A DNA stretch of 64,000 nt from an uncultured Actinomycetota bacterium (GTDB lineage: Bacteria > Actinomycetota > Thermoleophilia > RBG-16-64-13), in assembly GCA_963796315.1 (NCBI GenBank), contig CAWCLH010000020.1:1121879-1185878 (forward strand), given 5' to 3'. How positions within the stretch are numbered: position 1 is the stretch's first letter; every line of letters begins with the position of its first letter. Positions 8,045 to 45,502 of the stretch are shown here, in pieces. The notes under the pieces were generated by a model that saw only the letters and a program-made list of their open reading frames with translations, had not been told where the DNA came from and did no database searches. The position numbers were made by a program, and so were the translations under genes.

Positions 8045-8048
<4 letters not shown>

Positions 8049-12310: not shown

Positions 12311-12352
12311 GTCGGTCTCCCCCGGCTCGGCTACTCTCCGGGTCGCGCGGTC

Positions 12353-15584: not shown

Positions 15585-15884
15585 AGAGAATCACGGCTTG
15601 GGTGGTGACCTCATCACGGAAATGCGGACTGAGAAACCCAGCCGTTTCCAAATCCACCTGTCGTCCTAGGAGTTCAGAAAGCTCGTCTTGGATGCGGAAG
15701 AACCCGAATCCGGGTACGTGGCCGGGCTCAAACTCTACCAGGATGTCGAGATCACTCTGGGGACCAAGTGAGAGCGGAGCGCCGAGCCAAACACTGCAAG
15801 GCGGCGGAGATGGTTGCGGCGGCAGTATTCCGCCAGGCGTTGAAGAATAATGTTCAATGGTAGATCGGGCACGGCTAGTTCCAT
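15571..15884 (-). pseudogene. mntA: MNT-type nucleotidyltransferase antitoxin with one frameshift (~15775)
   Basis: ATG 15884 gives MELAVPDLPLNIILQRLAEYCRRNHLRRLAVFGSALR. After the shift, GPQSDLDILVEFEPGHVPGFGFFRIQDELSELLGRQVDLET. The stop overlaps the hepT start by 14 nt. Confidence 0.65.
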
Positions 15885-16001
15885 TCTATAAGCGGACATC
15901 GACCCAAAAGCGATGCGCTGGTGAGACCTTCACGTCTCGAGGGGGTGCATGTGGGTACGATAGCGAGACGGAGGGACGGCACGCAACCGACCCGTCGCCC
16001 T

Positions 16002-16863
16002 CTAGCCCGCGTTGTGCTTCACGAACGTACCGGCGCGGTACTCGGCGAACGCCGTCTGCAACTCCTCCGCCGTGTTCATGACGATGGGACCGCCCCAGGC
16101 GATGGGCTCCCGCAGCGGCCGGCCGCTGACCAGCAGGAAGCGGGCACCGTCGGGACCCGCCCGGACCGCCACCTGGTCGCCGTCGGTAAAGAGCACGACC
16201 ACGCCCTCGTCGGCGCAGGTCTCGGCCTCGTCCGGACCGAAGCAGGCCTGCCCTTCGAACAGGAAGGCGAAGACCGTGTGCCCGAGGGTAGTCGGGTGCG
16301 TCCAGGCCGCGCCCGGCCGACGGTCACGTCCAGATACTCCGGGTCGATCACGATGCCGGTCACCGGCCCGACGGTCTCGCCGACGGCCCCGCAGATCACG
16401 CGCACAGTCGCCTCGCCGGTCTCCACCGCCGGGATGTCGGCCGCTTCGATCCCGCAGTAGCGCGGATCCATCATCTTGTCGGTCGCCGGCAGGTTCGCCC
16501 AGAGCTGGGACCCGCGTAGGCGTCCCGCCTGTTCCCCTCGGGCATCTCCTGGTGGATGATGCCGCTGCCGGCCGTCATCCACTGCACGTCGCCCGGGCCT
16601 ATGCGCCCCTCGTTGCCCATGGAGTCGCCATGTTCGACCTCACCCTCCAGGACGTAGGTGATGGTCTCGATGCCGCGGTGTGGATGCCAAGGAAAGCCGG
16701 CGAGATAGCGCGTCGGGTCGTCTCCGCCGAAGTCGTCGAGCATCAGGAACGGGTCGAACGCGTGCTCCTGACCGAAGCCGAAGGCTCGGAGGAGATGACA
16801 CCGGCTCCCTCGATCGTCCGGGCGCGACCTATGGACGGCAGCAACGGTGCGGGTCACGGGCAT
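16002..16863 (-). pseudogene. Pirin-family protein with several frameshifts
   Basis: ATG 16863 follows GGAGG. Motifs [20 protein letters not shown] and [18 protein letters not shown]. Frame changes at the C run 16534-16537, giving [17 protein letters not shown]. Another shift near 16310, then the C-terminal ORF 16002..16202. A possible compensated patch near 16750-16800 reads TIEGAGV in the alternative frame. Confidence 0.6.
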
Positions 16864-17004
16864 GGGTGTCCTCCGGAGGGGCGGGCGAGAGCTCGCGCAG
16901 GGGAGCTCTCGCCGGACGGTGTGGTGCACAAAGTGAAGCCGAACACAGAGTATAGCGGCCCCACCGGACACACCCCACGCAGCCCGCGCCGTGACTACCC
17001 GATA

Positions 17005-18263: not shown

Positions 18264-19492
18264 TCAGCCCAGAGGGGCCGGACCCAGCTCGTTGGCGAGC
18301 TCGTCGAGGAAGAGACCCACGTCCGTGACGATGCCGATGGTCTGGATGCTGCCCCGGTCGGTGAGCTTGGTGACCACCGCCGGGTTGATGTCCACGCAGA
18401 CGGTGTGCACCGAGGCGGGAAGCAGATTGCCGGTGGCGATGGAGTGGAGCATGGTGGAGAGCATCAGGCAGAGACCCGCGTCGGCGACCAGCTCGCCGCA
18501 TCTGCTGCTGGGCCACCATGACGTCGGTCACGACCTCGGGAAGGGGTCCGTCGTCGCGGATGGAGCCGGCGAGCAGGAACGGGATACCCGCCCGGACGAC
18601 CTCGTAGAAGATGCCGGAGGTCAGCACGCCCGTCTCGACCGCCTGCCGGATGCCACCGGCCGCCCGGACGCGGTTGATGCGCGCAGATGATGCTCGTGGC
18701 CGCCGTGCACCGGCAGCCCTTGGGCCAGGTCGACCCCCAGCGACGTGCCGAACAGGGCGGACTCGATGTCGTGCGCGGCGATGGCGTTGCCGCCGAACAA
18801 GACGTCGATCCAGCCCTTTCGGACCAGGCGGGCGAGGGCCGGCGCGGCGCCGGTGTGCACCACCGCCGGTCCCACCACCGCGACGATGGTCTTCCCGGCC
18901 GCCCGCGTCTCCTGGGCCAGCCGGGTGACCTCGGCCAGCACCAGCGCCTTGGGTCTCTCCGAGGAGACGGGGGAGCTCATGAACTCGAAGAAGGCCCCGG
19001 TGCGCGGGCGGGCCGGCGGTACCACGCGGATGCCCTCGCGGCCCACCACCACCTGCTCGCCCCGGCGCACCTGGATCAGGGGCACCGTCCGCGCCCGAGG
19101 AGCGGCGGGATCGACCACGACCCGCAGTCCATCTCGGTGCCCGCCACCTCCACCCACCTACCGTCCAGGCGGACGAAGGTCTCCAGGTTGGTGGTGGAAT
19201 AGAAGGCCTCGGGGAACACGCCGTCGGCAGGCGCCGGCTCGTACCGGGCGTCCCCGGGGACGACGGCGGTCGCACCGTGGCGTTGGATGCGCTCGAGCAG
19301 GGCCTCCAGGTGGGGACCGTCCCGCCCCTCCACCCGAAGGATGGCGGTGGACACGTCCTGGCGTTCGTGGCCCACGGTGATATCCAGGATGTGGTACTCG
19401 CCGTCCAGCGCGAGGATATCGTCCAGCACCAGGGGCAGCATCAAGGAGTCGATGATGTGCCCGTCCAGCCGGACGTCCTCGTAGACGCTCAC
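18264..19492 (-). pseudogene. TIGR00300 / LOR-SDH-type protein (ornithine cyclodeaminase-like) split over four frames
   Basis: GTG 19492 gives MSVYEDVRLDGHIIDSLMLPLVLDDI... Then VVGREGIRV...VVGPAVVHTGAAPALARLVRKGWIDVLFGGNA, then INRVRAAGGIRQAVETGVLTSGIFYE..AGSIRDDGPLPEV, then [12 protein letters not shown]...[13 protein letters not shown]. Breaks are near 19110, 18690 and 18475. Confidence 0.55.
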
Positions 19493-19494
19493 CC

Positions 19495-20273
19495 CTACTC
19501 GGTCCCCATCCGGTCGCGCAGCGCGCTCACCACCGTGCGGACCGCCTGCACGTAGTCCTCGGCCCGCTCGAACGGCGGCGCCTCGTCCAGGTCGGCCTGC
19601 CGGACCGCGCGGCTGTAGGGAGGCTGCCGATGATCTCGTACCCCTCGAGCATGCCGGTCACCTGCTCGCGCTCGCTCTCGTCCACCTTGTTCAGCACCAC
19701 GTACACCCGGCGGATGCCGATGTCGTCCGCCAGCTTGCGGATGGAGGCCGCCGTCCGCGCGCTGCGGGCTCCCGGCTCCACCACGACGACCATGGCGTCC
19801 ACGCCCTCGGCCGTACCCCGGCCCAGGTGCTCGATGCCCGCCTCCATGTCCAGGATCACGGCCTCCTTGCGGCGCAGGAGCAGGTGACGGATCAGGGAGC
19901 GGAGCAACACGCTCTCCGGGCAGACGCAGCCGCCTTTGCCCTCCTTCACGGTGCCCATCACCATGAGGCGGATGCCGTCCAGGCGGTAGCTCAGCTCGTC
20001 GGGGATGTCGTCCACGCGCGGGTTGATCTTGAAGAAGCCGCCCATCGTGCCCGGCTGCGCGCCGGTACGCTCCGCGATCAGCTCCTGCATGTCGGCGATG
20101 GGCACGATCGACGCGGCCACGTCGGGAGGCAGGCCGAGCGCGCTGGCGAGGTTGGCGTCAGGGTCGGCGTCGACCGCGAGTACCTGGAAGCCCTCGGCGG
20201 CCAGGATGCGGGCCATCGTGCCCGCCAATGTGGTCTTGCCGACCCCGCCCTTGCCCGTCACCGCGATCTTCAC
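19495..20273 (-). CDS. cooC: CooC/MinD-family P-loop ATPase (metallocentre maturation type), frameshift at the G run 19618-19620
   Basis: MKIAVTGKGGVGKTTLAGTMARILAAEG, VLAVDADPDANL. After EIIGSLP the alternative frame reads YSRAVRQADLDEAPPFERAEDYVQAV and stops at TAG 19495-19497, 2 nt before the next gene. Confidence 0.7.
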
Positions 20274-20952: not shown

Positions 20953-21813
20953 CTAGCCGGCCGGGTCGACCAGCTCGGGGAAGGTGAAGGCGGTGAGCCG
21001 GGACCGCCTGACCAGGCCCACCAGCCCCAGCGACAGGCGCTCCGCGTGGTCGATGGCCAACGTGGTGGCGACGCTCTTCGAGACCAGCAACGGGATGGGC
21101 GTCTTCGCCACCTTGCTGACCATCTCGGAGGAGACGCGCCCGGTGACCACCATGAAGAGGTCGCTCAACGGAGTGCCCGCCAGCAGCAGGCGGCCCACCA
21201 CCTTGTCGACGGCGTTGTGGCGGCCGATGTCCTCGCCGATGGCCACCAAGCGGCCGCTCCGATCGAACAGGCCGGCGGCGTGGGTGCCCCTGGTCCGCCG
21301 GTAGAGCGGGCCCTCCGAGTAGGTCACCCGGGCGGCTTCGAAGATCGCGGAGGCCCCGATCCACGGCAGGTCCTGGGGCAGGGCGCGCCAGGGGGCGGCG
21401 AACGCGTCCAGGGCGTTCGAGAAACCCATCCCCCGGCCGCAGCCGGAACTTAGGACGCGACGCTCGAAAAGCCGGCGCCCCAGCTCGACCCCCGGCGCTT
21501 CCACCCGGACGCCGGACGCCTCCTCCTCGACCGAGACCACCTGATCCACGCGATCGACGATGCCCTCGTCGTAGAGGAAGCCGACCGCAAGCTCGACGCG
21601 CTGACCGGGACTGGCCAGGAGCGTCACCAACTCCTGATCGTTCAGGACCAGCGTGATCGGGTCCTCCCGGGGCAGAGAAAGGCTGTCCTCGCGGACTCCA
21701 TCCTCGCCGATAAGCAGCACGGGGCACTGTGCGTCTTCAGCGGCGTCCGCGGACGAGAGCCGCGAGACGGCGGGCCGGCGGGCGAGATCGTCTGGCCGTA
21801 GCTGGGGTTCCAC
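20953..21813 (-). CDS. fdhD: Formate dehydrogenase accessory sulfurtransferase FdhD
   Basis: 286 aa with SSGCGRGMG, HAAGLFD and IGEDIGRHNAVDKVVG..VTGRVSSEMVSKVA. Confidence 0.85.
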   Translation of the reverse strand: MEPQLRPDDLARRPAVSRLSSADAAEDAQCPVLLIGEDGVREDSLSLPREDPITLVLNDQELVTLLASPGQRVELAVGFLYDEGIVDRVDQVVSVEEEASGVRVEAPGVELGRRLFERRVLSSGCGRGMGFSNALDAFAAPWRALPQDLPWIGASAIFEAARVTYSEGPLYRRTRGTHAAGLFDRSGRLVAIGEDIGRHNAVDKVVGRLLLAGTPLSDLFMVVTGRVSSEMVSKVAKTPIPLLVSKSVATTLAIDHAERLSLGLVGLVRRSRLTAFTFPELVDPAG

Positions 21814-22098: not shown

Positions 22099-22824
22099 TC
22101 AGAAGTCGAAGAACCGATAGCGCGCCAGGTGGGAGGAGAGCCAGGTGAACTGACCGGTCACCATCAGGAGACCGTAGAGGATCAGCAGCGCGCCGGAGAC
22201 GATCCGGATGGCGGTGAAATGCCGCTTGACCCAGCCGAAGGCGCCCATCGCCCGGGTGAAGAAGAGGCCGGAGAGCAGGAAGGGCACGCCTAATCCCAGG
22301 GAATAGGTCAGCAGCAGCAACGCACCGGTCCCGGGATTCCGGCCCGACGCGGCCACCGTGAGGATGGACGCAAGGATCGGCCCGACGCAGGGCGTCCAGC
22401 CGATGGCGAAGGCCAGACCGGCCCCGAACGCACCCACCAGACCTCGAGGGGCACGAAAGGGGAGGGCCCGCCGCTCCCGCTCGAGCACGTTCAGGTGGAC
22501 CACCCCGGTGATCGCCACTCCAAAGAGGATCAGCAGGAGGCCGCCGATGACCTGGAGCGTCCGGCGGTTCTGAAGCACGGCGCCGCCCAGGAACGCCGCT
22601 CCCGCCCCCGCGATGGTGAACATCAGTGAGAACCCGGCGACGAAGGCCAGCGTGGCCAGCATCACCCGCCGGTTCCGCTCCTGCAGGTCACCTACCGAGA
22701 CCCCGGAGACGAAGCTGAGATAGCCGGGGAGCAACGGGAGGACGCAGGGGCTGAGGAAGCTGGCCGCCCCCGCGACGAGCGCGAGGGCAAGGGAAGCCAG
22801 CGAGAGCTCCGGAGAGAGGGTCAC
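22099..22824 (-). CDS. ccdA: Cytochrome c biogenesis thiol-reductant transporter CcdA (DsbD family)
   Basis: 241 aa, polytopic, with FLSPCVLPLLPGY and WTPCVGPILASIL motifs. Confidence 0.9.
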   Translation of the reverse strand: MTLSPELSLASLALALVAGAASFLSPCVLPLLPGYLSFVSGVSVGDLQERNRRVMLATLAFVAGFSLMFTIAGAGAAFLGGAVLQNRRTLQVIGGLLLILFGVAITGVVHLNVLERERRALPFRAPRGLVGAFGAGLAFAIGWTPCVGPILASILTVAASGRNPGTGALLLLTYSLGLGVPFLLSGLFFTRAMGAFGWVKRHFTAIRIVSGALLILYGLLMVTGQFTWLSSHLARYRFFDF

Positions 22825-22839: not shown

Positions 22840-23340
22840 CTAGCGGAGGCCGCTGACGGCGGCGGCCAACTCGGCGGCGGTGGTCGCCCCCACCTTGGTC
22901 TGGGCGATCTTGCCGCCCTTGTCGATGATGATGGCCGTCGGCACTCCCGAGACGCTGTAGTTGCCGGCGATGCCACCGTCCGGGTCGATCAGGACCGGCA
23001 GATCGGTTGCGCCGGACTCCTTCAACAAGGCCTCGACGTTGGAGCGTTGATCCTGGAGCGCCACGAGGAGCATGCCGCTGTCTTGCTGGTGTTCTCGGTA
23101 GAACCTACCGAGTTCCGGGGTCTCGTCCCGGCAGGTGGGTCACCAGGAGGCCCAGAAGACCAGCACGAGGGGCTTGCCCTTGTAGGAGTCCAGGGAGACC
23201 TGCTGGCCGCCCATGGTCATGCCGCTGAAGGCGGCAGCGGACCCCCCCGACGACCCGTTCGCGGTGCCACAGCCGGTGACCGCGACCAGGACGAACAGGA
23301 GGACCAGCAGGACCGCGAGAGCCGGGACAACCCGTTTCAT
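22840..23340 (-). CDS. TlpA/ResA-like thioredoxin-fold lipoprotein with in-frame TGA (23140-23142) in the active site: W-U-P-T-C
   Basis: Two listed ORFs (23140..23340 and 22840..23073) share one frame. Hand translation across the TGA gives ...KPLVLVFWASW-TGA-PTCRDETPELGRFYREHQQDSGMLLVAL..GVPTAIIIDKGG. Lipobox LVAVTGC. 15 nt upstream of ccdA. Confidence 0.8.
23115..23131 (-). promoter_or_regulatory. Candidate SECIS-like hairpin downstream of the UGA in the first TlpA-like gene
   Basis: mRNA CCGGG-ACGAGAC-CCCGG: 5-bp stem with a 7-nt loop, starting 8 nt after the UGA. Confidence 0.4.
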
Positions 23341-32737: not shown

Positions 32738-33340
32738 CTAACGGGCGGCGGCAGCCAGAGCGACCAGGTCCTCAACGGTAGTGGCCCCGACCTTGGTCGT
32801 GACGATCCTGCCCTGAGCGTCGATCGCCACCGCGGTCGGCACCCCGCTCACGAAGTAGTCGCCGGCGATCGAGCCGGCGGGGTCTTGGAGGATAGGAAGG
32901 TGGTATCCGCCCTCGCGCATGAAGGCTTCCACGTCGGCGCGCGCATCCTGGATATCGATGAGAAGAAGCTGGGCGTCCTGCTTGTGCTCTCGATAGAACC
33001 TATCGAGTGCCGGGGTCTCCCCCCGGCAGGTGGGTCACCAGCTGGCCCAGAAGATCAACAGTAACGGTCTTCCCCGGTACACCTCGAGGGAGACCGGCTT
33101 GCCCTCGAAGGTGATGCCGCTGAAGGTGGGAGCCGCTCGCAGAGCCGAGACGGCCCCGTCACTCGAAGCCGCGCCCTCCTGCGTCCCCGCCGGCCGGCCC
33201 CGGCTCGTCGAGAACCAGAGGCCGAGAACGAGCACCAGCAGCAGGACGGCCGCCGTGATCGCCGCGGTCCCACGAGCGGACGACCGGGGAGCGGCGGTGG
33301 CTCCGTCGGCTTCGCGCTCGTCGCGACCGTCCTCCTGCAT
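32738..33340 (-). CDS. Second TlpA/ResA-like thioredoxin-fold protein with in-frame TGA (33035-33037): W-U-P-T-C
   Basis: ORFs 33035..33388 and 32738..32932 share a frame. Hand translation gives ...RPLLLIFWASW-TGA-PTCRGETPALDRFYREHKQDAQLLLIDIQ..GVPTAVAIDAQG. One TM anchor. ATG 33340 overlaps the ABC ATPase stop (TGATG). Confidence 0.8.
33009..33027 (-). promoter_or_regulatory. Candidate SECIS-like hairpin downstream of the UGA in the second TlpA-like gene
   Basis: mRNA GCCGGGG-GGAGA-CCCCGGC: perfect 7-bp stem with a 5-nt loop, starting 7 nt after the UGA. Confidence 0.5.
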
Positions 33341-34068
33341 CACGGCGCCAGCGCGAACGTCTCCCGACCTTCGCCCGAGAGCTCGCACGCGGCGGGTCGG
33401 TCGTCACAGGTGATGCGGCCGTCGCGGATCTGGATCAAGCGGTCCACGTTGGCGGTGGATTCCGGGTTGTGGGTCACCATGATCACCGCGTGGCCGCGGT
33501 CGGCCAGCTCGCGGAGCAGGATGAGGATCTGCTGCCCGGTCGCCTGGTCCAGGCTGCCCACCGGTTCGTCGGCCAGGATGACGGGCGGGTCGTTCACGAC
33601 CGCGCGGGCGATCGCCACGCGGCCCTGCTCCCCTCCGGAGAGCTCGGAGGGTACGCGCCGGGCCTTCCGCTCGTCCAATCCCACCCGGCAGAGCGTGTCC
33701 AGGGCGCGGTCGGCCTTGCCCGGGTCCTTGAGGATGGCCAACGGCAGCATGACGTTCTCCACCGCGGACAGGTAGGGGATCAGCTCCAGCTGCTGGAACA
33801 CGAACCCGATGTACTCGCGGCGCAGATCCGCCTGACGCTCCTGACTGAGCGCGTAGACGTCGATGCCATCCACCAGCAACCGCCCGGTGGTGGGCGGGTT
33901 CATCGCCCCCAGGATGGAGAGGAGCGTGGTCTTCCCGGACCCGGAGGGACCCATGATGGCGACGTACTCGCCCCGCTCGATATCCAGGCTGACCCGATCC
34001 AAGGCGGTGACCCGGGCTTCGCCTTCCCCGTAGGAGCGGCTCACGTCTTCGATGCGTACCAGGGACAC
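33340..34068 (-). CDS. ABC transporter ATP-binding protein (MacB/LolD type)
   Basis: 242 aa with GPSGSGKTTLLSILG, LSGGEQGRVAIARA and ILADEPVGSLD. Confidence 0.9.
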   Translation of the reverse strand: MSLVRIEDVSRSYGEGEARVTALDRVSLDIERGEYVAIMGPSGSGKTTLLSILGAMNPPTTGRLLVDGIDVYALSQERQADLRREYIGFVFQQLELIPYLSAVENVMLPLAILKDPGKADRALDTLCRVGLDERKARRVPSELSGGEQGRVAIARAVVNDPPVILADEPVGSLDQATGQQILILLRELADRGHAVIMVTHNPESTANVDRLIQIRDGRITCDDRPAACELSGEGRETFALAP

Positions 34069-34081
34069 GTCCTTACCTCCG

Positions 34082-35239
34082 TCAGATGTACTTGAGAGCG
34101 GTCGCCGGGTCCATGTTGGCCGCCCGGCGGGCCGGGTAGAGAGCGGCCAGCATCCCGACCAGGTAGGCCAGCGCGATACCGGCCAGGATCACCAGCGGAT
34201 TGGGCGCCACGGTCAAGGAGAGGCTGGGCACCAGCGACGGCACCACCAGCCCGGCGGCGACGCCGACCAGGATCCCCGTCAGCGCTCCCCCGCCGCTCAG
34301 GAGGGCCGACTCGAGCAGGATGAGCTTTGCGATGTGCCGTTGCTTGTACCCGACGGCGCGGAAGACGCCGATCTCCTTCTGACGTTCCTTCACCGAGGTC
34401 AGCATGGTGATCATCACCACCAACCCTGAGATCAGCACGATCAGTAGGGTGATCGCCAGCCCAAAGCCGGCCAGTGAGGAGTTCGCCCGATTGGTGAACT
34501 CGATGCTCTTCTTCACCGAGACGACGGAGGACCCGGGGATGCTGCGCTCGATCTCTTTGCTCAGGCGGTCGACGGCGGTGGTGCTGGCAGCCGTGACCTC
34601 GATCAGGTTGACCTCGCCCCGGTGTCCGGTGAGCTCGGCGAGCGCGGGCAGGGGCAGGATGACCAGGTTGTCTTCCTCGCCGCCGATCTCCTGCAGCACG
34701 CCGGCGACGGTGAAGCGCCGACCGTCCAGCTCGATCGACTTCCCCGCATCCAGGCCGAGGGTGTTCCGGACGTTGAGGCCCAGCAGCACCTCGTCGGCTG
34801 CCTGGGGCAGCCGGCCTTCCACCCGCCACCAGAGCTTGACCTTGAGGCTCTCCGCCAGGTCGGTGCCCATGGCCAGGAAAGAGCGCTCTCCCACCTTCAC
34901 CGGTTGCAGCAGCACCGGGATGGCGGCGGCGACGTCGGCCTTGGACGGCACCGCCCGGATCCGATCCACGTCGGCCAGCTTCAGGTACCGCACCTCCCCG
35001 GTCCCCGCGCCGCCGACGTCCACCCCGCCGTAGCTCAGGCTGAGCTCGGTCGTCGCCGGGGTGACCACCAGGTTGGAGCCGAACTTGCTCAGCTTGTCGT
35101 CCATGGTGGCCCGAAGGGAGAAGACCAGGGAGAGGACCAGCACGAAAGCGGCCACCGCCACCGAGAGTCCGAGCACGACCAGGACGGCCTTGCCCTTGCG
35201 GCGGCGCAGATTACCGAGGGCGATGGTGCGAAGGTCCAT
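34082..35239 (-). CDS. FtsX-like ABC permease
   Basis: 385 aa with N-terminal IALGNLRRRKGKA, a large periplasmic loop, and a C-terminal 3-TM FtsX domain. Confidence 0.85.
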   Translation of the reverse strand: MDLRTIALGNLRRRKGKAVLVVLGLSVAVAAFVLVLSLVFSLRATMDDKLSKFGSNLVVTPATTELSLSYGGVDVGGAGTGEVRYLKLADVDRIRAVPSKADVAAAIPVLLQPVKVGERSFLAMGTDLAESLKVKLWWRVEGRLPQAADEVLLGLNVRNTLGLDAGKSIELDGRRFTVAGVLQEIGGEEDNLVILPLPALAELTGHRGEVNLIEVTAASTTAVDRLSKEIERSIPGSSVVSVKKSIEFTNRANSSLAGFGLAITLLIVLISGLVVMITMLTSVKERQKEIGVFRAVGYKQRHIAKLILLESALLSGGGALTGILVGVAAGLVVPSLVPSLSLTVAPNPLVILAGIALAYLVGMLAALYPARRAANMDPATALKYI

Positions 35240-35242
35240 CGG

Positions 35243-36400
35243 CTACACCGGCCTCATGGCGAGGGTAGGGCTGAGACGCGCCGCCTGCCAGGCAGGATAG
35301 AGACTGGCCAGCAGGACCACTCCCAGCGAGGCACCCAGCGCGACGCCCAGGCCGGCAGGGCTGGGGGCCAGCGTCTCGCTCACCCCCGCCACCACGCGGG
35401 CCAACGGCCCCGCACCCAGGGTCGCGAGCAGGAGCCCCCCGATCCCCCCCGCGAAGGCCAGCGCCAAATTCTCCACCAGGATGATGGAAAAGATGTGCTT
35501 GCGCCGGTAGCCGATCGCCCGGAAGATGCCGATCTCGCCGCGTCGGTCACGCACCCCTGCCAGCGTCGAGGAGAGCACGATCAGGCAGCCCACCAGGATC
35601 ATCAGCCCGGACAGGACGGCGCTGAACAGACGGAACTGATCGATCAAAAGCCGTCGTGACTCCACGGCTTTCAGCAGGGCTGAGACGCGGGCGGTGGGTA
35701 GAGCGGTCGAGATCTGAGCGTTGATCAGCTCGATGGGGCAGGTGCTGCAGAAGGCGGATACCTCGATCAGGCTGAGCTCGTCACCTCGCTGCCAGAGCCG
35801 CTGGGTGGTGGCCAGATCCAGGTAGAGCAGATCGTCCTCTTGGGTACCGGTCTGCTCCAGCAGACCGGCCACCGTGAAGCGTTCCCCCTTCAGGGTGACC
35901 GTGTCGCCGCTCTTCAACCCGAGCAGAGCCGCGGCTCGACTCCCGACCAGGACGTCGTGGTCCTTCTGGGGGCGTGCTCCATCGATGTGCCACCATTTCT
36001 TCAAGCCCAGCTCTTCTCTCCAGTCGACGCCGGCCGCCAGCACCCGCCGGCCGCCGACCTCGGCAGCCACGATCAACTCCGGGGCGACCCGGTTGATGTT
36101 CTGCTTGTTCTTGATCCCCCGGATCTTGGCGACGTCGGCCAGGTGGAGAGGCGTGACGTCGTAGGTCAGTCCGCCCAGGCTCACGCCCCCGTAGGTCAGG
36201 GGAAGGTCCTTGCTCCGCGGTACCACCACGATGTTCGCGCCGTAGTCGTCCACCTTGTTCGCCAGATCGCGCTCGGCGCTGCGGGTGACCAGGTAGAGCA
36301 CGCTCACGATGCCCACGGTGGCGACGATGACCAGCAGCAGGAGAGCGCTGCGGGACAGGTGCTGGCGCATGTTCCGAAGAGCGATATGCGAGAGACGCAT
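35243..36400 (-). CDS. FtsX-like ABC permease (second copy)
   Basis: ATG 36400 gives MRLSHIALRNMRQHLSRS. Same architecture as the neighbouring permease. Confidence 0.85.
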   Translation of the reverse strand: MRLSHIALRNMRQHLSRSALLLLVIVATVGIVSVLYLVTRSAERDLANKVDDYGANIVVVPRSKDLPLTYGGVSLGGLTYDVTPLHLADVAKIRGIKNKQNINRVAPELIVAAEVGGRRVLAAGVDWREELGLKKWWHIDGARPQKDHDVLVGSRAAALLGLKSGDTVTLKGERFTVAGLLEQTGTQEDDLLYLDLATTQRLWQRGDELSLIEVSAFCSTCPIELINAQISTALPTARVSALLKAVESRRLLIDQFRLFSAVLSGLMILVGCLIVLSSTLAGVRDRRGEIGIFRAIGYRRKHIFSIILVENLALAFAGGIGGLLLATLGAGPLARVVAGVSETLAPSPAGLGVALGASLGVVLLASLYPAWQAARLSPTLAMRPV

Positions 36401-36521
36401 GGAGCGGGCTGTCCTTCCGGGAGCGGGTCCGCCCGGGACGGCCGGCCGACCGGGCACTGCGTGGTGACCCCCGCCTGCGGCCCGCCCAGTGCGGGCCGCA
36501 GGCGTTCAAAGGGTCAGAACG

Positions 36522-37214
36522 CTACTGCCGGGGGGTCCAAGCCTCCAGGTCGGCGGTGGCCACCACGATCTTGCCGTTCTGGTTCTGCGCCTTGATCGGG
36601 TCCGGCGGGAAGTCGGTGCAGCCGCCGGAGATGCCCTGGAGCGTGTTCAGGTCCCACTTGGTGAAACAGGTGTCGCAGACCAGGGTGTTGCCCTCGATGT
36701 GGAAGCTGTTGCTGCGGCAGGGCTCGCAGAACGATGACGCCACCACCAGGTTCCCGCTGGGCGCGACGTACGAGATCAGGGGCAGCTTGCCGCCGGTCAG
36801 ACTCTGCCATTCGCCCGGGAACGGATTGGTCCGCTGGTACTTCATCATGACCAGCTTGCTCTGCTGCACGTCGGCAGCGGAGAAGCTGGCCGAGGTGCCG
36901 CTGACGGCCAGGTCGATCGGCGTCTGGGTGATCGTGCCGCCCGCAGAGCCGCCGGTCGATGAGGCGGTGGTCACGTCGCTGACCTGCACGCCGCTCGAAA
37001 CCTGCTTGCCCGACTGCACCTTCTGGTAGCCCGCCATCCCCAGGAAGGCGACGACCGCGATGGCGGTGACGACGATGATGACCCGCTGCAGGGGGAACTT
37101 GCCCGCCTCCTCGAAGCGTTGCCGCTTGCTATCGAGGTTGTCCAGATGCGCGGGCTGGCTAGTGCGCGGACGGGCGGCCGGAGGCTTCTTCTGCTGACCT
37201 TTGGATCGACTCAC
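36522..37214 (-). CDS. DUF2318-like Cys-rich membrane-anchored protein
   Basis: GTG 37214 follows AAGGGGAGAG. One TM (VIIVVTAIAVVAFLGMAGY). C-terminal domain SSFCEPCRSNSFHIEGNTLVCDTCFTKWDL..GGCTDFPP. Confidence 0.65.
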   Translation of the reverse strand: MSRSKGQQKKPPAARPRTSQPAHLDNLDSKRQRFEEAGKFPLQRVIIVVTAIAVVAFLGMAGYQKVQSGKQVSSGVQVSDVTTASSTGGSAGGTITQTPIDLAVSGTSASFSAADVQQSKLVMMKYQRTNPFPGEWQSLTGGKLPLISYVAPSGNLVVASSFCEPCRSNSFHIEGNTLVCDTCFTKWDLNTLQGISGGCTDFPPDPIKAQNQNGKIVVATADLEAWTPRQ

Positions 37215-37299
37215 GACTCTCCCCTTACTGAGAAGTGACGACTGCTCGCTCAGCCTTCGGGGATTCCTTGTGAAGCTGCCCACGAAGACTGACGGCATT

Positions 37300-37318
37300 C
37301 TACTACGCCACATAGTAG
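37300..37318. promoter_or_regulatory. BlaI-box-like dyad CTACTAC-GCCAC-ATAGTAG
   Basis: 6 of 7 positions pair. Lies 86-104 bp upstream of the DUF2318 start. Confidence 0.5.
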
Positions 37319-37331
37319 AAGGGCAATGCTC

Positions 37332-37350
37332 CTACGACGATTTGTAGTAG
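37332..37350. promoter_or_regulatory. BlaI-box-like dyad CTACGAC-GATTT-GTAGTAG
   Basis: 6 of 7 positions pair. It is the second box of a tandem pair, 32 bp centre to centre from the first. Confidence 0.5.
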
Positions 37351-37369
37351 AGAGAGGGGAGGCGAGGGA

Positions 37370-38396
37370 TCAGTGGGTGTCGCCGGCGGGGAGACGCGTG
37401 ACCGAGTGGGTGCCGTCGTGGCAGGTGTGGGTCGGTGCCTCGCCGGGGAGCGTCACGTCGGTGAAAGCGAGGGCGCTGCCCGTGAAGGCGAACAGGAGGA
37501 CGGTCACCACCAAGACGGTCCCCGACGAGGTACCGCCGTGAGGTGACCGCCACTTGGCCGAACACGAGTCCCCGGATCCGCTCCACGACGTCGCCCTCGT
37601 CGGCGAAAGCCAGGCCGGGCGAGGTGGTGCCGGGAAGCAGGGCGCGGGCGAACTTCTGCAGGCTGGAGGCGACCACGAGCGGGTCTCCGGTCCGCCGCCT
37701 GGCGAAGTCGTCGGCGGCCAGTTCCTGTGCCCGGCGCAACCGGACGACGGCCGGACGGACGCCGGGCAGCAGCGCGAAGGTCGCGACAAAGGTCCGCGCG
37801 ACCAACAGGATCAGGTTGTCCCGAGCGATAAGATGTCCCTCCTCGTGGGCGAAGACCGCCTGCACCTCCTGCTCATCCAAGCCGGACAGCAGACCGGACG
37901 AGATCACGACCCGGGGCCGCAGGGTGCCCATCGTGTACGAACGCGGGACCTCGTCGTCCACCACATAGGTCCGCCCGCGGAGACCGGGAGGCAGCGGACC
38001 TCCGTACAGGACCCCCTCTTCGAGGGCACGGGCCACGTAGCGGGAAGAGGAGTGGACTTGGCTGAGCGCTGCATAGACCGCGACGGCGATCAGCCCGAGA
38101 AGGATCCCCCCCATGAAGAAGGAGAAGGTGGCGTTGGCCCACCCGGGAAGGGCTCGCTGGCAGGCGACGGCGACCTTGCAGACCAGTCCGGTCCGATCGA
38201 GGACGGCATGGGGCAGGTAGCGCAGGAACACCGCGACCAGCAGCAGCAACGTGGCCAGAGCGGCGCCGGAGATGGACGCGAGGTAGGTCAGGACAAGCGC
38301 GCGGGGAGCCAGCCGAGACTCCAGGAACCGGCGGACCAGCCAGGGCCCGGCCAGCAGGAGGGCGTAGGTCAGCGCGAGGGTCAGGCCGACGATGAC
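37370..38396 (-). CDS. M56-family (BlaR1-like) membrane metalloprotease without a penicillin-binding sensor domain; frameshift at the C run 37520-37523; start unresolved
   Basis: HEEGH zinc motif in QAVFAHEEGHLIARDN. After SRRYLVG the alternative frame gives TM TVLVVTVLLFAFTGSALAF and the tail TDVTLPGEAPTHTCHDGTHSVTRLPAGDTH (stop 37370-37372). TM1-like coding (VIVGLTLALTYALLLAGPWLV) extends to ~38396 with no in-frame ATG/GTG/TTG. Confidence 0.7.
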
Positions 38397-38812
38397 TCCC
38401 GCTCCTGGCGCATCTGCTGGATGATGTCGGCGAGGACGTCGAGTTGGCCCGCATCCTCGTTGGTGAGACTCTCCACGAAGTGAGTGAGGACCGGCCGGTT
38501 GACCGAACCGAACAGCCCGCTGACGACGGTCTTGACCACTCCGGTACAGAAGGCGTCTCGAGTCTGCACCGGCTCGTAGATGTAGGCCCGGCCTTCCTGA
38601 CGGCGGCGCAGCAGCGCTTTCTCCGCCAAGCGACTCATCACGGTCATCACCGTGGTGTAGGCGATCTCACGCCGTTCCAGCAGGCACTCGTGCACCTCCC
38701 GGACCGACGCCGATCCGAGATCCCACATGCACTCCATGATCTCGGCCTCCAGGTCGCCGAGGACCTGCCTCAGCCCCTGGCTCCCGATATTCAGGCTCAA
38801 CGGTTCGTCCAT
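38381..38812 (-). CDS. blaI: BlaI/MecI/CopY-family winged-helix repressor
   Basis: ATG 38812 follows AGGAGG. LGDLEAEIMECMWDLGSASVREVHECLLERREIAYTTVMTVMSRLAEKALLRRRQEGRAYIYEP. No C-terminal CxC copper motif. Confidence 0.85.
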   Translation of the reverse strand: MDEPLSLNIGSQGLRQVLGDLEAEIMECMWDLGSASVREVHECLLERREIAYTTVMTVMSRLAEKALLRRRQEGRAYIYEPVQTRDAFCTGVVKTVVSGLFGSVNRPVLTHFVESLTNEDAGQLDVLADIIQQMRQERESSSA

Positions 38813-38841
38813 GCAGGTCCCTCCTGGTGCGACGGCACGCA

Positions 38842-38858
38842 TACTACCAAACGTAGTA
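38842..38858. promoter_or_regulatory. BlaI-box-like dyad TACTAC-CAAAC-GTAGTA (probable autoregulatory site)
   Basis: Perfect 6+6 inverted repeat, 30-46 bp upstream of the blaI-like start codon. Confidence 0.6.
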
Positions 38859-38930
38859 GCAACGGGGCAAGCAGCCCGACCGGTGGTGGCGGCGGGGGCG
38901 CCGTTGGCGGTGCAGGCGCGGCCGCAGACC

Positions 38931-39074
38931 CTACTGCGGCAGCTGCATCTCCCGTTCCAGCCGCTCGATCTCCTTGCGAAGGCCCGTCTGGCGCCGGGCG
39001 ATAGAGATCATGTAGGCCCCGAGGATCACCCAGATGACCGCGTAGCCGGCGAACAGAAAACCCAAGTCGTTCAC
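38931..39074 (-). CDS. ccmD: CcmD-like small membrane protein (47 aa)
   Basis: GTG 39074 gives VNDLGFLFAGYAVIWVILGAYMISIARRQTGLRKEIERLEREMQLPQ. Lies 10 nt after ccmC. Found by hand translation. Confidence 0.6.
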   Translation of the reverse strand: MNDLGFLFAGYAVIWVILGAYMISIARRQTGLRKEIERLEREMQLPQ

Positions 39075-39084: not shown

Positions 39085-39831
39085 CTATCGCATCAGGTGT
39101 TGATGACGAAGACGCTCGATCCTTGAGGTCAGATCCATCTGGCGGTAGCGCACGATCAAGAGGTACGCGTAGACGAGCGTGATGGCGAACAGCGAGAACA
39201 TCAGCACGAGCGTCATCCGCGAATCCAGGTTGATGGCGTTCTCGGTGATGACGGTGGGGTGGATGGTCCGCCACCAACGCACCGACATGAAGACGATGGG
39301 TACGTCCACCCACCCCACGATGCCGAAGACCGCCGCCACCCGGGCCGTCTTGTGCCCGGGCTGCGACGCGGACCGCAGCATGAGGTAGGCCACGTAGATG
39401 AACCACAGCACCAGGGTGGTGGTCAGACGCGGGTCCCACGTCCAGTAGGCGCCCCAGATGGGCCGGGCCCACAGGGGACCGGTGATCAGGGTGACGGTGG
39501 TGAAGACGACGCCGATCTCGGCCGACGCGGCCGCGATCCGGTCGTAGCGCAGGTCCTTCTTGATCAGGTAGAGGATGCTCGCGATGAACACCACCGTGAA
39601 GGAGGGCCCCAGGGCGACCCAGGCGCTGGGGACGTGGAAGTAGAAGATGCGCTGCACGTCGCCCATCTGGGCCTCGGTCGGCGCGTAGAGCAGCGCCCCG
39701 TAGAGGGCGATGACGACGGACACCAGGGCCGCGACGCCCAGAGCGTCCAGCCAGAGTGAGCCGCCGGTGAGGCCGCGGGTCCCGGTCGAGGGCAGGCCGC
39801 GGTCGAGGGTCTGGTCGTGTGCCATGCTCAT
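39085..39831 (-). CDS. ccmC: Haem exporter protein CcmC
   Basis: 248 aa with the WWD motif WGAYWTWDPRLTTTLVLW. Confidence 0.9.
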   Translation of the reverse strand: MSMAHDQTLDRGLPSTGTRGLTGGSLWLDALGVAALVSVVIALYGALLYAPTEAQMGDVQRIFYFHVPSAWVALGPSFTVVFIASILYLIKKDLRYDRIAAASAEIGVVFTTVTLITGPLWARPIWGAYWTWDPRLTTTLVLWFIYVAYLMLRSASQPGHKTARVAAVFGIVGWVDVPIVFMSVRWWRTIHPTVITENAINLDSRMTLVLMFSLFAITLVYAYLLIVRYRQMDLTSRIERLRHQHLMR

Positions 39832-40505
39832 TCCTCGAGGACGAAGTCGAAGGTCATGATCGAGAGTGCCAGGAAGATCACGTCATAGACTACCAGCAGT
39901 AGGAGCCAGGAGGAGCCCTCGCCCAGCGAGCGCCCGTCCAGCACGTGCCCCGACGACTTGGCGGCCGCCAGGATCACCGGCACCATCACCGGGAACAGCA
40001 GGATGGACAAGATGACGTCACGGGCCTTGAGCCCCACCGACACTGCGGAGAACAGGGTGCCCACGCTGCTGAACCCGATGGTGGCCAGCACCAGGATCAA
40101 GCCCAGCGGGGCCACGGTGCGGGCCAGGTCGACGTTGTAGAGCACCGCGAAGAAGAAGAACACCACGACGCCCATCAGCAGCAGGAAGACGAAGTTGCCC
40201 AGGAACTTGCCCAGGTAGATCACGCTGCGGTCCACCGGGCAGAGCAGCAGCCCCTGCAGGCAGTCGTTCTCCTTCTCCGAGGCGAAGGAACGGTTGAGGC
40301 CCAGGATGCCGGCGAAGGTGAACGCGGCCCAGAGCACCCCCGGCTTGACCAGGTTCTCCTCCCGCAGGCCCGGCTCGATCCCGAAGTTGAAGATCAGGAT
40401 GACCAGGAAGCCGAAGAGAAGCATGGAGAAGACCATCTCGCGGGTGCGCAACTCCCCCACGATGTCCTTCCAGGCGATGGCCCACGCCCGGTTCAGGAAT
40501 CCCAT
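39828..40505 (-). CDS. ccmB: Haem exporter permease CcmB
   Basis: ATG 40505 gives MGFLNRAWAIAWKDIVGELRTREMV. Six TM helices. Overlaps ccmA and ccmC. Confidence 0.85.
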   Translation of the reverse strand: MGFLNRAWAIAWKDIVGELRTREMVFSMLLFGFLVILIFNFGIEPGLREENLVKPGVLWAAFTFAGILGLNRSFASEKENDCLQGLLLCPVDRSVIYLGKFLGNFVFLLLMGVVVFFFFAVLYNVDLARTVAPLGLILVLATIGFSSVGTLFSAVSVGLKARDVILSILLFPVMVPVILAAAKSSGHVLDGRSLGEGSSWLLLLVVYDVIFLALSIMTFDFVLEE

Positions 40506-41264
40506 CGGTAGTCCTTCCCCACGTACTCGAAGTACGTCTGCTCGAAGGCCGCCCGGTCGATCTGGCCGATAGGCCGACGGAACACGGTCTTCCCCAGCAC
40601 CTGAATGGACACCTCGTCGCACATCTCGAGCCCCTGCTCCAGGTTATGCGTGGTCAGGACGATGCTCCGTTCCCCCGTGTGCAGGGTCTCGAGGACGCTG
40701 CGCAGCATGCGGGAGGCATGCTGGTCCAGGCCGGTGTAGGGCTCGTCCAGGAACATGATGTCCGGTTCGTGCAGCAGGGCGCGCGCGATGGACAGGCGTT
40801 GCTGCATGCCCCGAGAGTACGTGGCCACCCGGTCCTCCATGCGGCCGTAGAGCCCGACCTCCTCCAGCAGCTTCGTCGCCCGGTCTTCCAGGTCGGCGAC
40901 GCCGTACATCGTGCCGTAGAAGGTCAGGTTCTCGAAGGCGGAGAGGCTCGGGATAGAGGTAGGTATTGTGCGAGATGACCCCGATGCGACGGCGGAGGAT
41001 GTCCGCTCCCTGCACCACGTCGGTCCCCGCCAGCAGCACCTGACCTTCGGTGGGCTTGATCTGGGTCGAGAGGACCTTGATCAGCGTGGTCTTGCCGGCA
41101 CCGTTCGGTCCGAAGATGGTGAGGAACTTACCCTGCTCCAGCTGAAGGTCCAGACCGCGAAGCGCCGCGAAATGGCCAAAGTACTTCCATAGGCCCCGGA
41201 CCTCGATGGCGAGGTCCGGGGTGGGTGGGCCGGGCTCCAGATTGTCAGGGGCAGCGACGGCCAA
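40493..41264 (-). CDS. ccmA: Haem exporter ATPase CcmA, frameshift near 40949-40952
   Basis: TTG 41264 lies 2 nt after the upstream stop. FGPNGAGKTTLIKVL. After ISHNTYLYP the alternative frame gives SLSAFENLTFYGTMYGVADLE...YSRGMQQRLSIARALL..MFLDEPYTGLD. Confidence 0.8.
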
Positions 41265-41266
41265 GG

Positions 41267-41879
41267 TCAGGCGGTCACCTCGGCGCCGCAGCCTCCGCAG
41301 AAGCGCGCCCCCGCCTTCAAGGGGGCGCCGCACTCGTCGCACGCGGCCCCCGCGTGCCCGTTGGGAGAGGTCTCCATCACGGCGACGGCCGACTGCTCCA
41401 GCAGGTGGTCGCCGCAGCCTGCGCAGAAGCGGGCCCCCGCCGGGTTGAGGTGGTCGCAGGCCAGGCAGACCAGCTGCCCGTCGTCCGCCGGGGCAGCTCG
41501 CCGCGGACGCTTCGGAGACGCGGCCGCTTGCTTCTGCGCGACAGCCGGCCGAGGCTGCCGCGCCGCGGTCTGCGTGGCCCGGGGCCGGCTCTTCGCCTTG
41601 GGCGCGGGCCGCTCGGCTTCGGCGATCGCTTCCAGGATCTCCACGGCGTTGGCCCGGTACTTGAGCGTCGAGCTCCCGGAAGTCGGACTCGGACAGTTTG
41701 CCCGTCCGGAAGTCGAACTCGAGCTCCTTGAGCGCCGAGTAGGTCGACTCCTTCCGCCGGTGCAGCTCCTCGACCTCCTCGGGAAGCTCCATCTCTTCTT
41801 CGTCGGTCCACTGGCGCAGCAGCGGATAGCCTACGAAGGCCACTGCCGCCAGCGCCATGAGGATCTTGATCAGCATCAC
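41267..41879 (-). CDS. CcmI-like N-terminal module fused to a double zinc ribbon, frameshift near 41668-41671
   Basis: MMLIKILMALAAVAFVGYPLL...YSALKELEFDFRTGKLSESDFREL. After the shift, TLKYRANAVEILEAI...LVCLACDHLNPAGARFCAGCG...ACDECGAPLKAGARFCGGCG. Confidence 0.6.
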
Positions 41880-41922
41880 GGTCGTTCGTCTCCTCGGTCT
41901 CGCCGTCGCGGACGCCTGGGTC

Positions 41923-42419
41923 TCAGTCGAAGTCCTTCAGCTCGTCCTCCATCTTGTGGACGAGCTCATCGCGCACCGGGGACTGCAGCTCCACCTGTCC
42001 CTCGGGGGTCGCGGCCACGAGCGCCGCGCGGCGCTTGGCCCAGCCGCCGATCAGAAAGTAGATGGCGATACCGCCGCCGATCAGGACGGCGAAGGGGATC
42101 AGCCAGGCGGCCAGGTTGAAGCCGCTCTTGGTGGGCGCGGCCAGGACACGGTCGCCGTATTTCGTGACGTACGAGTCGATCACCTGCTGAGGCGTCTCGC
42201 CCGCCGCCAGCTGGGCGTGGACGTCCTGCTTCGCAGGGATGCCCCACTCGCAGTTCTGGTGCGGGCACTCCTTGAGCACCGCGTTGCAGCCGCACAGGCA
42301 CATGATCTTCGAGGTCACCGACGAATCCGCAGGCGCCGCCTGTCGCCGGCGCGGTCCCCAGAAGGCCGGCGCCGAGCGCTAGGAGGAGCACCGCCGGGCC
42401 GAGCCACAGGCGCCGAAAA

Positions 42420-42430
<11 letters not shown>
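41923..42430 (-). CDS. ccmH: CcmH/NrfF-like protein, frameshift near 42333
   Basis: ATG 42430 overlaps the ccmF stop by 11 nt. The signal peptide [29 protein letters not shown] is in one frame. The mature part VTSKIMCLCGCNAVLKECPHQNC...AAWLIPFAVLIGGGIAIYFL is in another (ORF 41923..42318). Confidence 0.7.
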
Positions 42431-44423
<1,993 letters not shown>

Positions 44424-44526
44424 GTGGTTGGTTCCTCCGTGTCACCTGGGTCTGGGATCCGCCAGTGCCGACGTCCTCGCCGTCCGCCGACGAAACGACG
44501 AGACGAACGGCGCGACGGCACCTCTT

Positions 44527-44973
44527 CTACTTGCCGGTCGACGTGCCCGTCGGCGCCTCGGACTTCGCCTTCGCCTCGTACTTGGACGGGCACTTGGCGA
44601 GCAGATCGACCGAGCTGAACTGCTTGCTCTGCAGGTAGTCACCGGTCACGACCACCTCGGGGGCGGGCTCGTCGGCACGCGGCTCCCGGAAGGTGTCGGG
44701 CACCGGGCCGGTGTGCGACACGAGCAGGACCTTATTCGGGGAAGCCTTGTCGTGGATCTGGAAGGTGATGGGCTGGCCCACGCCGCCCTTCTTGATACTG
44801 CCGACGACCAGGTCCCCAGAGACCTTGACGTTCTGGGACGGGCCCTTGGCCTGAAGCTCGGTGACGGTGTAGTAGTAGACCATGTTCCCCCGCACCGCGT
44901 AGAACGCGAGGGAGGCGATGGCGGCCACGATCACCAGGCCGCCGATCACGAACTTCAGCTTCTTGTTGCCCAT
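44527..44973 (-). CDS. ccmE: Haem chaperone CcmE, Cys-type (CxxxY) variant
   Basis: ATG 44973 follows GGAGGAAGG. TM anchor, and VDLLAKCPSKYEAK where canonical CcmE has HxxxY. Confidence 0.85.
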   Translation of the reverse strand: MGNKKLKFVIGGLVIVAAIASLAFYAVRGNMVYYYTVTELQAKGPSQNVKVSGDLVVGSIKKGGVGQPITFQIHDKASPNKVLLVSHTGPVPDTFREPRADEPAPEVVVTGDYLQSKQFSSVDLLAKCPSKYEAKAKSEAPTGTSTGK

Positions 44974-45025
44974 ATGCGCCTGTCCTTCCTCCATGGATCC
45001 TCCGACCCGCATCGACCGTACAGGA

Positions 45026-45502
45026 TCAGTACAGCAGTCGCTCGAGGCCCGTCCCACTCATCACCCGGTTGGTCACTTTCTCCGGGAACAGTTTTTCCGG
45101 GCATTTTACCAAAATCTGCGTAGCCTCGAAGACGCCGCCCTTGCCCGTGGAGCCCGTCACCACCACCTCTTGGAAGGGAGCGAGGCGTTCGGGGTAGGGC
45201 CCGGTGTAGACGACGTCCATGCGGCCGCCCTTCGATCCCTCGAGGACGAAGCGGACCTCCTGCGTCGACGGGTCCTGGTTCAGGCTGCTCTCGGCCACCC
45301 GGCCGCCGACCCGGACATTGGACAGCGTACCGGCCGCCTTGGCCTCGTCGACGGTCTGGTAGAAGTCTCCACCGACGGTCAGGAAGAGCACCAGCCAGAG
45401 CAGGGCCAGCACGATGACCACGATACCGACGATCAGCTTCCACCTGCGCCACCAGGGGGTCGAGACGGGGGGCTGCAGGTCCTGGGTCTCGGTCACCGTC
45501 AC
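45026..45502 (-). CDS. Second CcmE-like paralog (C-P-E-K-L, no Tyr at +4)
   Basis: GTG 45502 follows AGGAG. TM WKLIVGIVVIVLALLWLVLFL. FYQTVDEA, and TQILVKCPEKLFPEK at the haem-binding position. Confidence 0.7.
   Translation of the reverse strand: MTVTETQDLQPPVSTPWWRRWKLIVGIVVIVLALLWLVLFLTVGGDFYQTVDEAKAAGTLSNVRVGGRVAESSLNQDPSTQEVRFVLEGSKGGRMDVVYTGPYPERLAPFQEVVVTGSTGKGGVFEATQILVKCPEKLFPEKVTNRVMSGTGLERLLY

Follow-up and report, generated by a model that had tools for sequence, protein, structure and literature searches.

A probable selenocysteine in the active site of a TlpA/ResA-like lipoprotein encoded next to ccdA in an uncultured Thermoleophilia bacterium

The gene tlpA(U)-1 of an uncultured actinobacterium of the class Thermoleophilia codes for a predicted thioredoxin-fold lipoprotein and is interrupted by one in-frame TGA. 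It is located directly upstream of ccdA on a stretch of 64,000 nucleotides (nt) of contig CAWCLH010000020.1 (GenBank assembly GCA_963796315.1, positions 1,121,879 to 1,185,878), which is called the window in the following; all coordinates count from its first letter. Comparative analysis strongly supports the view that the TGA specifies selenocysteine (Sec, U) at the first position of the CxxC motif of a TlpA/ResA-like lipoprotein encoded beside ccdA, as a sequence-only reading of the window had claimed. Conservation of the TGA among orthologs, its alignment with the catalytic cysteine of Cys-type homologs and an RNA structure resembling a selenocysteine insertion sequence (SECIS), which was observed in the TGA-bearing genes only, all point in this direction. 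Thus tlpA(U)-1 is very probably a real Sec gene, or at least a recoded one. The core features are:

22840..23340, minus strand: tlpA(U)-1, thioredoxin-fold lipoprotein of 166 codons, with the start codon ATG at 23340, the lipobox VTGC and the stop codon TAG at 22842..22840
23140..23142, minus strand (read 23142..23140): predicted Sec codon, an in-frame TGA at the first Cys of WCxxC
22099..22824, minus strand: ccdA, a DsbD-type membrane thiol-disulfide transporter and presumed electron donor (Pfam DsbD_TM, 6.2e-18)

In the frame from 23340 to 22840 the TGA is the sole internal stop, so the two same-frame open reading frames (ORFs) described in the sequence-only reading are parted by this codon alone. 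The translation runs MKRVVPALAVLLVLLFVLVAVTGC...KPLVLVFWASW, the TGA, PTCRDETPELGRFYRE...GVPTAIIIDKGGKIAQTKVG...GLR. Flanked by VLVFWASW and PTCRDETPEL, the TGA gives an active site W-U-P-T-C. A Shine-Dalgarno-like AGAGAGG precedes the ATG, and inspection of the N-terminus revealed a signal peptide with a terminal lipobox V-T-G-C. The G+C content at third codon positions (GC3) was 0.91 on the 5' side of the TGA and 0.89 on the 3' side, the level of real genes; the window has a G+C content of 68 %. Domain and family searches were performed with a Cys substituted for the TGA stop. Pfam assigned AhpC-TSA (PF00578; 7.9e-22, 78 bits at a cut-off of 26) and Redoxin (PF08534; 1.4e-21, 77 bits at a cut-off of 26.6). 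The protein has a GVPT cis-Pro loop, and the flanks including this loop are kept in the orthologs. Judged by its predicted fold, cis-Pro loop and export signal, the product is a TlpA-like extracytoplasmic thioredoxin-fold protein. The nearest NCBIfam models were StoA, ResA, DsbE and TlpA, and every curated cut-off was missed. Among solved structures in the PDB, Bacillus subtilis StoA was the best match (1e-19), followed by the Streptococcus pneumoniae Etrx lipoproteins and ResA, while CcmG/DsbE was clearly weaker with ~42 bits; the matches to the StoA and ResA structures extended over the full length. The start codon GTG of ccdA (22824) is situated 15 nt past the TAG of tlpA(U)-1, the distance given before, and co-transcription of the two genes is strongly supported as part of the core reading. 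The facts given for this gene in the sequence-only reading were thereby all confirmed.

In Cys-type homologs, the position of the TGA is taken by the invariant first Cys of WCxxC, which bears out the Cys/Sec correspondence. In an alignment with 15 of these homologs, W66, C67 and C70 were the only invariant columns. The sequence at the TGA site was VFWASWCPxC in sixty Cys-type genes; they came from a scan of contigs seeded with the pattern VFWASWCP, showed at most 39 % identity to tlpA(U)-1, and were the only type obtained because the seed pattern biased the search. Orthologs were collected from contigs of relatives found via the neighbouring CcdA, with CcdA identities from 82 % down to 59 %; these relatives carry the names Thermoleophilia or Actinobacteria. 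In every one of them, ccdA is directly preceded by a gene split in the same way. Together with one ortholog from a pattern scan (L130), eight distinct orthologs were available (L206, L081, L208, L082, L211, L214 and L217 being the others), and all eight carried the TGA at the identical codon in the context FWA[ST]W-U-P[TAS]C. They are all lipoproteins with 46-66 % identity to tlpA(U)-1, the conservation reaches the C-terminus, and the adjacency of tlpA(U) and ccdA is kept at all orthologous loci. A comparison of the Cys-substituted protein with 5.8 billion proteins yielded no Cys-form homolog that matched over the full length at more than 35 % identity, therefore the clade seems to be without a Cys form. 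On the level of DNA, the pattern FWA[ST]W-TGA-CCN-NNN-TGY was detected in at least 120 metagenome contigs, all of which translate as thioredoxin-fold ORFs reading through the TGA.

A search of the six-frame translation of the window with a TlpA-like hidden Markov model (HMM) matched only tlpA(U)-1, the cytoplasmic TrxA and a second gene with an in-frame TGA, named here tlpA(U)-2:

32738..33340, minus strand: tlpA(U)-2, Sec-type paralog, 53 % identical to tlpA(U)-1 (HMM score 113)
33035..33037, minus strand: in-frame TGA of tlpA(U)-2, in the context FWASW-U-PTC

The paralog has an N-terminal membrane anchor in place of the lipobox, its ATG overlaps the stop codon of the upstream ABC ATPase gene, to which it is translationally coupled, and it occupies the spot where the relatives hold their single tlpA(U). 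The same search upheld the earlier statement that a Cys-type ccmG or resA is absent from the window; the paralog itself had been missed, together with the cytochrome c maturation cluster described below. With the same codon in eight distinct orthologs and in the paralog, a chance TGA is excluded on the level of sequence comparison. A global reassignment of TGA was also considered and ruled out, since 20 of the 41 window genes end with TGA as their normal stop.

Downstream of the UGA the messenger RNA can form two consecutive hairpins, and the same pair is present in the paralog:

23115..23131, minus strand: hairpin 1, CCGGG-ACGAGAC-CCCGG, a stem of 5 base pairs (bp) that starts 9 nt after the UGA (8-nt spacer)
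23094..23112, minus strand: hairpin 2, CUCGGUAG-GUU-CUACCGAG, an 8-bp stem with the GUU loop 35 nt after the UGA
33028..33008 and 33007..32989, minus strand: the two hairpins of tlpA(U)-2, folding z-score -5.5

Hairpin 1, with its CCGGG/CCCGG stem from 23131 to 23115, is the hairpin that had been reported to begin 8 nt downstream of the TGA. A hairpin is present at this position in every ortholog, with variable sequence and pairing register. Hairpin 2 has a folding energy of -10.4 kcal/mol and is nearly invariant across the clade, with a loop (A/G)GUU(C). Its pair 35-45 covaries without breaks, being A-U in six and G-C in three of nine sequences; the change between Gly and Asp codons (GGU/GAU) is matched by a synonymous change of the Tyr codon (UAC/UAU). 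The stem makes use of codons seldom found in the genome (GGU 0.11, AGG 0.05, CGA 0.08). Folding z-scores 3' of the Sec codon had a mean of -1.15 for Sec forms versus -0.01 for Cys-type homologs (Mann-Whitney p = 6e-11), and each of the ten sequences of the window clade had a value between -2.5 and -5.5. The SECIS-like structure is thus limited to the TGA-bearing genes, the Cys-type homologs being without it. In bacterial SECIS elements, the apical loop is 16-37 nt away from the UGA and has a G among its first two bases. Hairpin 2 fits this rule, hairpin 1 alone does not, and the GUU-loop hairpin 2 is most likely the SelB-binding element. A single covarying pair among nine sequences is a small number and weighs against this assignment.

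The metagenome loci L086-L205 represent a large family of thioredoxin-fold selenoproteins from soil and sediment with the motif FWATW-U-PxC; their SECIS hairpin, CGGGAGG-AGUUG-CCUCCCG, is very uniform and starts 9-10 nt after the UGA. In this broad soil family, 78 of 114 sequences had one hairpin with the loop AGUUG or AGUUA at the position of hairpin 1, and the hairpin covaries (pair 14-30: GC 61, CG 25, GU 10; pair 17-27: AU 63, GC 33). The window clade differs from the soil family in that its GUU-loop hairpin is located ~19 nt further from the UGA, behind the extra small hairpin.

The class 'Prx-like thiol:disulfide oxidoreductase' (PF00578, UxxC/UxxU) is one of two relevant selenoprotein families in reviews and in the original surveys, both regarded as high-confidence predictions dating from 2004-2006 and both of unclear function (PMC1088965, PMC1794560, PMC9312934, PMC13188914). 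Members of the class, the earliest of which were predicted in Geobacter and the Sargasso Sea metagenome, have been catalogued since 2004-2005 (PMC1088965, PMC9312934). By its PF00578 domain and its UxxC motif the predicted product of tlpA(U)-1 belongs to this class, sharing the AhpC-TSA/Redoxin domain, the Sec as the first residue of UxxC and the SECIS hairpin within the coding sequence just after the UGA (PMC1088965, PMC9312934, PMC13188914). The window clade is set apart from the family by its actinobacterial affiliation, the lipoprotein nature of the product, the constant pairing with ccdA and the link to a cytochrome c maturation (ccm) cluster. Another TlpA/ResA-like fold with Sec is described by the model NF041054 ('ResA-like WAxxUGC motif-containing protein', a UGC-containing TlpA family selenoprotein). 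Its Sec context WAxxUGC is different from the W-U-P-x-C of tlpA(U)-1, which scored 38.7 versus a cut-off of 300. The UxxC selenoprotein class is known already; specific for the clade are the obligate partnership with ccdA, the tie to a System I cluster without ccmG, the duplication of the Sec gene in one genome and the displaced two-hairpin SECIS. A literature search revealed no paper linking a Sec-containing TlpA to CcdA or to cytochrome c maturation.

With regard to the function, the product of tlpA(U)-1 is probably a CcdA-dependent extracytoplasmic reductase. In the mechanism we propose, the UGA would be read as Sec after recruitment of SelB by the mRNA structure just downstream, the small variable hairpin followed by the conserved 8-bp GUU-loop hairpin. 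Cytoplasmic thioredoxin would reduce CcdA, and CcdA in turn the selenenylsulfide of the U-x-x-C motif of the lipoprotein. The Sec, in place of the attacking N-terminal Cys, would then attack disulfides of extracytoplasmic clients, the likeliest of which may be CcmH-like proteins or the CxxCH motifs of apocytochromes c. The product of tlpA(U)-1, the membrane-anchored paralog or both could thus act as the CcmG-equivalent of a System I pathway otherwise without one. On balance we favour a genuine selenoprotein, an exported and lipid-anchored reductase of the TlpA/ResA/StoA type, with CcmH-like proteins or apocytochromes c as the most likely clients; the chance that cytochrome c maturation is its main job falls slightly short of even.

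The client assignment draws on the gene neighbourhood, in which Pfam identified a System I cluster without ccmG:

39088..45057, minus strand: System I cytochrome c maturation cluster, no ccmG
44530-45057, minus strand: ccmE
42423-44441, minus strand: ccmF
41926-42378, minus strand: ccmH-like gene, abutting ccmF
~40496-41300, minus strand: ccmA, apparently frameshifted
39831-40643, minus strand: ccmB
39088-39882, minus strand: ccmC
33343..39007, minus strand: BlaI-like repressor, M56/M48 peptidase, FtrD-like protein, two MacB/FtsX permeases and ABC ATPase
51420-52058, minus strand: second ccmH-like gene, with a PCC motif

Past ccmC follow, in this order, the genes for the BlaI-like repressor, the M56 peptidase, the FtrD-like protein, two MacB/FtsX permeases, the ABC ATPase and tlpA(U)-2. 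An insert of ~10 kb with a cytochrome c gene, a two-component system, an oxidase and Asp23 genes lies between tlpA(U)-2 and tlpA(U)-1. Past the pair of tlpA(U)-1 and ccdA, a Zn-ribbon gene and then fdhD are located. In the relatives the insert is absent, the block from 33343 to 39007 has its counterpart between ccmC and tlpA(U)-ccdA, and the genes ccm-tlpA(U)-ccdA form one continuous, co-directional array, with tlpA(U) ~1.7-6 kb downstream of ccmC. The relative L214 has the order ccmE-F-H, DZR zinc-ribbon, ccmA-B-C, a 51-residue ORF, blaI, M56, tlpA(U), ccdA; L211 has the same order with additional FtrD/MacB/ABC genes. In both loci the Sec gene is the only TlpA-like domain. A ccmG was not found in the window, the only thioredoxin-fold matches besides the two Sec genes being the cytoplasmic TrxA and a domain of an AhpF-like fusion protein. 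The fusion is encoded at 49536-51416 on the minus strand, within a region (48386-52058, minus strand) that contains the second CcmH-like gene, a TPR CcmH/CycH-like gene and lgt. It is a flavoprotein of 627 residues, AhpF/thioredoxin-reductase-like and fused to a C-terminal PDO/Grx-like domain; the domain scored 168 bits against TIGR02187 (cut-off 185), a family with Sec forms elsewhere. Placed amid ccm-related genes, the fusion could be a source of reductant for CcdA from the cytoplasm. The CcmH-like genes were inspected for hidden Sec codons, with a negative result; their motifs are CLCGC and PCC.

Electron flow from CcdA to CcmG is known in System I bacteria that use CcdA. The link of tlpA(U) to CcmG/DsbE lies in the window's ccm cluster without CcmG and in tlpA(U) being the sole kind of extracytoplasmic thioredoxin-fold gene nearby. 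The differences are a lipid anchor in tlpA(U)-1 instead of an N-terminal helix, which tlpA(U)-2 does have, a cis-Pro loop GVPTA instead of the CcmG-type GxPETF, and a position other than between ccmF and ccmH. ResA of B. subtilis and CcsX of Mycobacterium tuberculosis are apocytochrome c reductases of System II fed by CcdA (PMC3781833). They share with tlpA(U)-1 the extracytoplasmic TlpA-like thioredoxin fold, the WCxxC-type site and the genetic link to ccdA. However, tlpA(U)-1 has Sec for Cys, and the genes nearby are those of System I, ccmABCEFH, not resBC/ccsBA; Pfam scans of the window found no ResB/CcsB. StoA and Etrx1/Etrx2, the best matches among solved structures (1e-19 to 1e-16), are all partners of CcdA (PMC3914529, PMC2665060), and the Etrx proteins of S. 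pneumoniae are lipoproteins like the product of tlpA(U)-1. In contrast to the latter they use Cys and, together with StoA, serve spore cortex synthesis or repair dependent on methionine sulfoxide reductase (Msr), for which no client genes were observed near tlpA(U)-1.

Three other explanations have to be weighed against a Sec-containing reductase of the cytochrome c maturation pathway, two of which concern the TGA itself. The codon might be a true stop in a decaying pseudogene or an assembly error for TGC. Several window genes indeed look frameshifted, split or cut off (Pirin, 16005-17004; LOR/SDH-ArgZ-like, 18264-19657; ccmA, 40496-41300; purA, 4829-6706), which demonstrates an imperfect per-base quality of the assembly and counts in favour of this explanation; their state suggests assembly indels, possibly long-read errors, rather than real pseudogenes. 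Most public records also split the ortholog into two at the TGA, though for the ortholog L082 (GCA_027493445.1) a product of 176 residues appears to be annotated at NCBI across the TGA. On the other hand, eight independent orthologs, which derive from different samples, have kept the same TGA, and so have the paralog and the metagenome contigs of the pattern scan, thus sequencing error and pseudogene decay are effectively excluded. Protein-level conservation of the half 3' of the TGA, the equal GC3 on both sides and the structure-preserving codon choices downstream agree with this; the comparative data effectively refute a stop or an error, and we regard this explanation as hardly tenable. The UGA could, alternatively, be recoded to an amino acid other than Sec, to Cys via a tRNA-Sec-like tRNA or to Trp or Cys by near-cognate decoding, yielding an ordinary CxxC or WxxC protein. 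For some bacteria, it has been proposed that Cys can be inserted at UGA in a SelB-dependent manner. The machinery for Sec is missing from the sequences at hand: selA, selB, selD and tRNA-Sec were found neither in the 64-kb window nor in the fetched loci of the relatives, scans of the window with Rfam and ARAGORN were without a match, and ARAGORN detected no tRNA-Sec in 20 related loci. These negative results weigh against Sec, and because of them the Sec-decoding trait of the genome can only be inferred. Yet the SECIS-like hairpin, with G/U in its loop, is of the kind typically used for the insertion of Sec by SelB. The position and the UxxC motif also match the catalogued selenoprotein family (PMC13188914). 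A recoding to an amino acid other than Sec is therefore considered very improbable.

The remaining explanation accepts a genuine Sec in a CcdA-dependent surface reductase, but with clients other than apocytochromes: an Etrx-like role in the supply of methionine sulfoxide reductase, a TlpA-like role in copper insertion via Sco/CoxB, or the defence against peroxide or disulfide stress. The sequence-only reading had suggested that the apocytochrome-reducing thioredoxin of the organism may be this selenoprotein. In favour of the suggestion are the ccmG-less ccm cluster of the window and the relatives and the array ccmEFH-ccmABC-...-tlpA(U)-ccdA of the relatives. Several observations weigh against apocytochromes as clients and for the others. 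The scores of tlpA(U)-1 stayed far below the cut-offs of the DsbE/CcmG model TIGR00385 (58.4 versus 123.15), the CcmG-type model NF011941 (46.6 versus 359) and the ResA model NF002854 (82.1 versus 170), and StoA and Etrx1/2 are closer relatives than CcmG. The gene is located outside the canonical slot between ccmF and ccmH, ~16 kb from the ccm genes and behind the ~10-kb insert. Even in the relatives a BlaI/BlaR-like pair, in some also an FtrD/MacB-ABC block, separates ccmC from tlpA(U), and the genes in between include a BlaI/CopY-family repressor and a MacB-type exporter. The most distant relatives (loci L217-L219, ~7391-8726; genomes such as GCA_052035455.1) have tlpA(U)-ccdA directly between lgt and a PatA_N gene, with neither ccm nor blaI/M56 genes at this place, which in L217 is the equivalent genomic position. 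Within the broad soil family, ccm genes are seldom and ccdA almost never a neighbour of the Sec-TlpA gene, and the reviewed selenoprotein family is, as stated, functionally unclear. Against these alternative clients stands that no Msr, Sco or peroxidase gene adjoins tlpA(U)-1-ccdA in the window, and that the tie to the ccmG-less ccm cluster is kept in several relatives. Clients other than apocytochromes are a possibility to be taken seriously, although in our judgement an unlikely one. The reduction of apocytochrome c by the Sec lipoprotein is plausible, as we infer from the ccmG-less ccm cluster and from the one co-directional array ccm-tlpA(U)-ccdA in the relatives.

A far-reaching version of the proposal is offered tentatively and with considerable doubt: the only CcmG-like System I reductant of the clade may be an obligate selenoprotein, duplicated in the window and without a Cys-form ortholog in the clade, with a two-hairpin SECIS whose GUU loop is positioned 35 nt from the UGA. 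If the Sec protein were the only CcmG-like reductant, respiration with c-type cytochromes would depend on selenium. The clade provides one UxxC selenoprotein of unclear function with a fixed partner, CcdA, and with a conserved ccmG-less ccm neighbourhood, and therefore with a testable hypothesis, the selenium-dependent reduction of apocytochrome c or CcmH. With most gene callers, such genes end up as two short ORFs or are lost to a call on the opposite strand; soil bacteria, Actinobacteria among them, are therefore systematically under-annotated for thioredoxin-like reductases.

Several other genes of the window were observed in passing. Between rpsF and the Pirin gene, at 14979-15899 on the minus strand, a HepT/MNT-like toxin-antitoxin pair (DUF86 and nucleotidyltransferase) is located that looks frameshifted. 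At the corresponding place the relative L214 has a gene for a PF11823 'Se/S carrier' (L214 16234-16674); this gene was looked for in the window and was absent, the HepT/MNT-like pair being in its place. The gene fdhD (20953-21813) is far removed from anything recognisable as a formate dehydrogenase. The possibility that the molybdopterin protein at 61790-64000 is a Sec-containing formate dehydrogenase was considered and rejected: no stop codon breaks its frame, and it matches a QrcB-like protein best. The QrcB-like molybdopterin-family protein (61175-64000, minus strand) scored 235 bits, below the cut-off, and is encoded beside a di-haem cytochrome c peroxidase/MauG-like gene. The replicative helicase gene dnaB (10505-12352, minus strand) is interrupted by an intein (Pfam Intein_splicing, residues 415-549).

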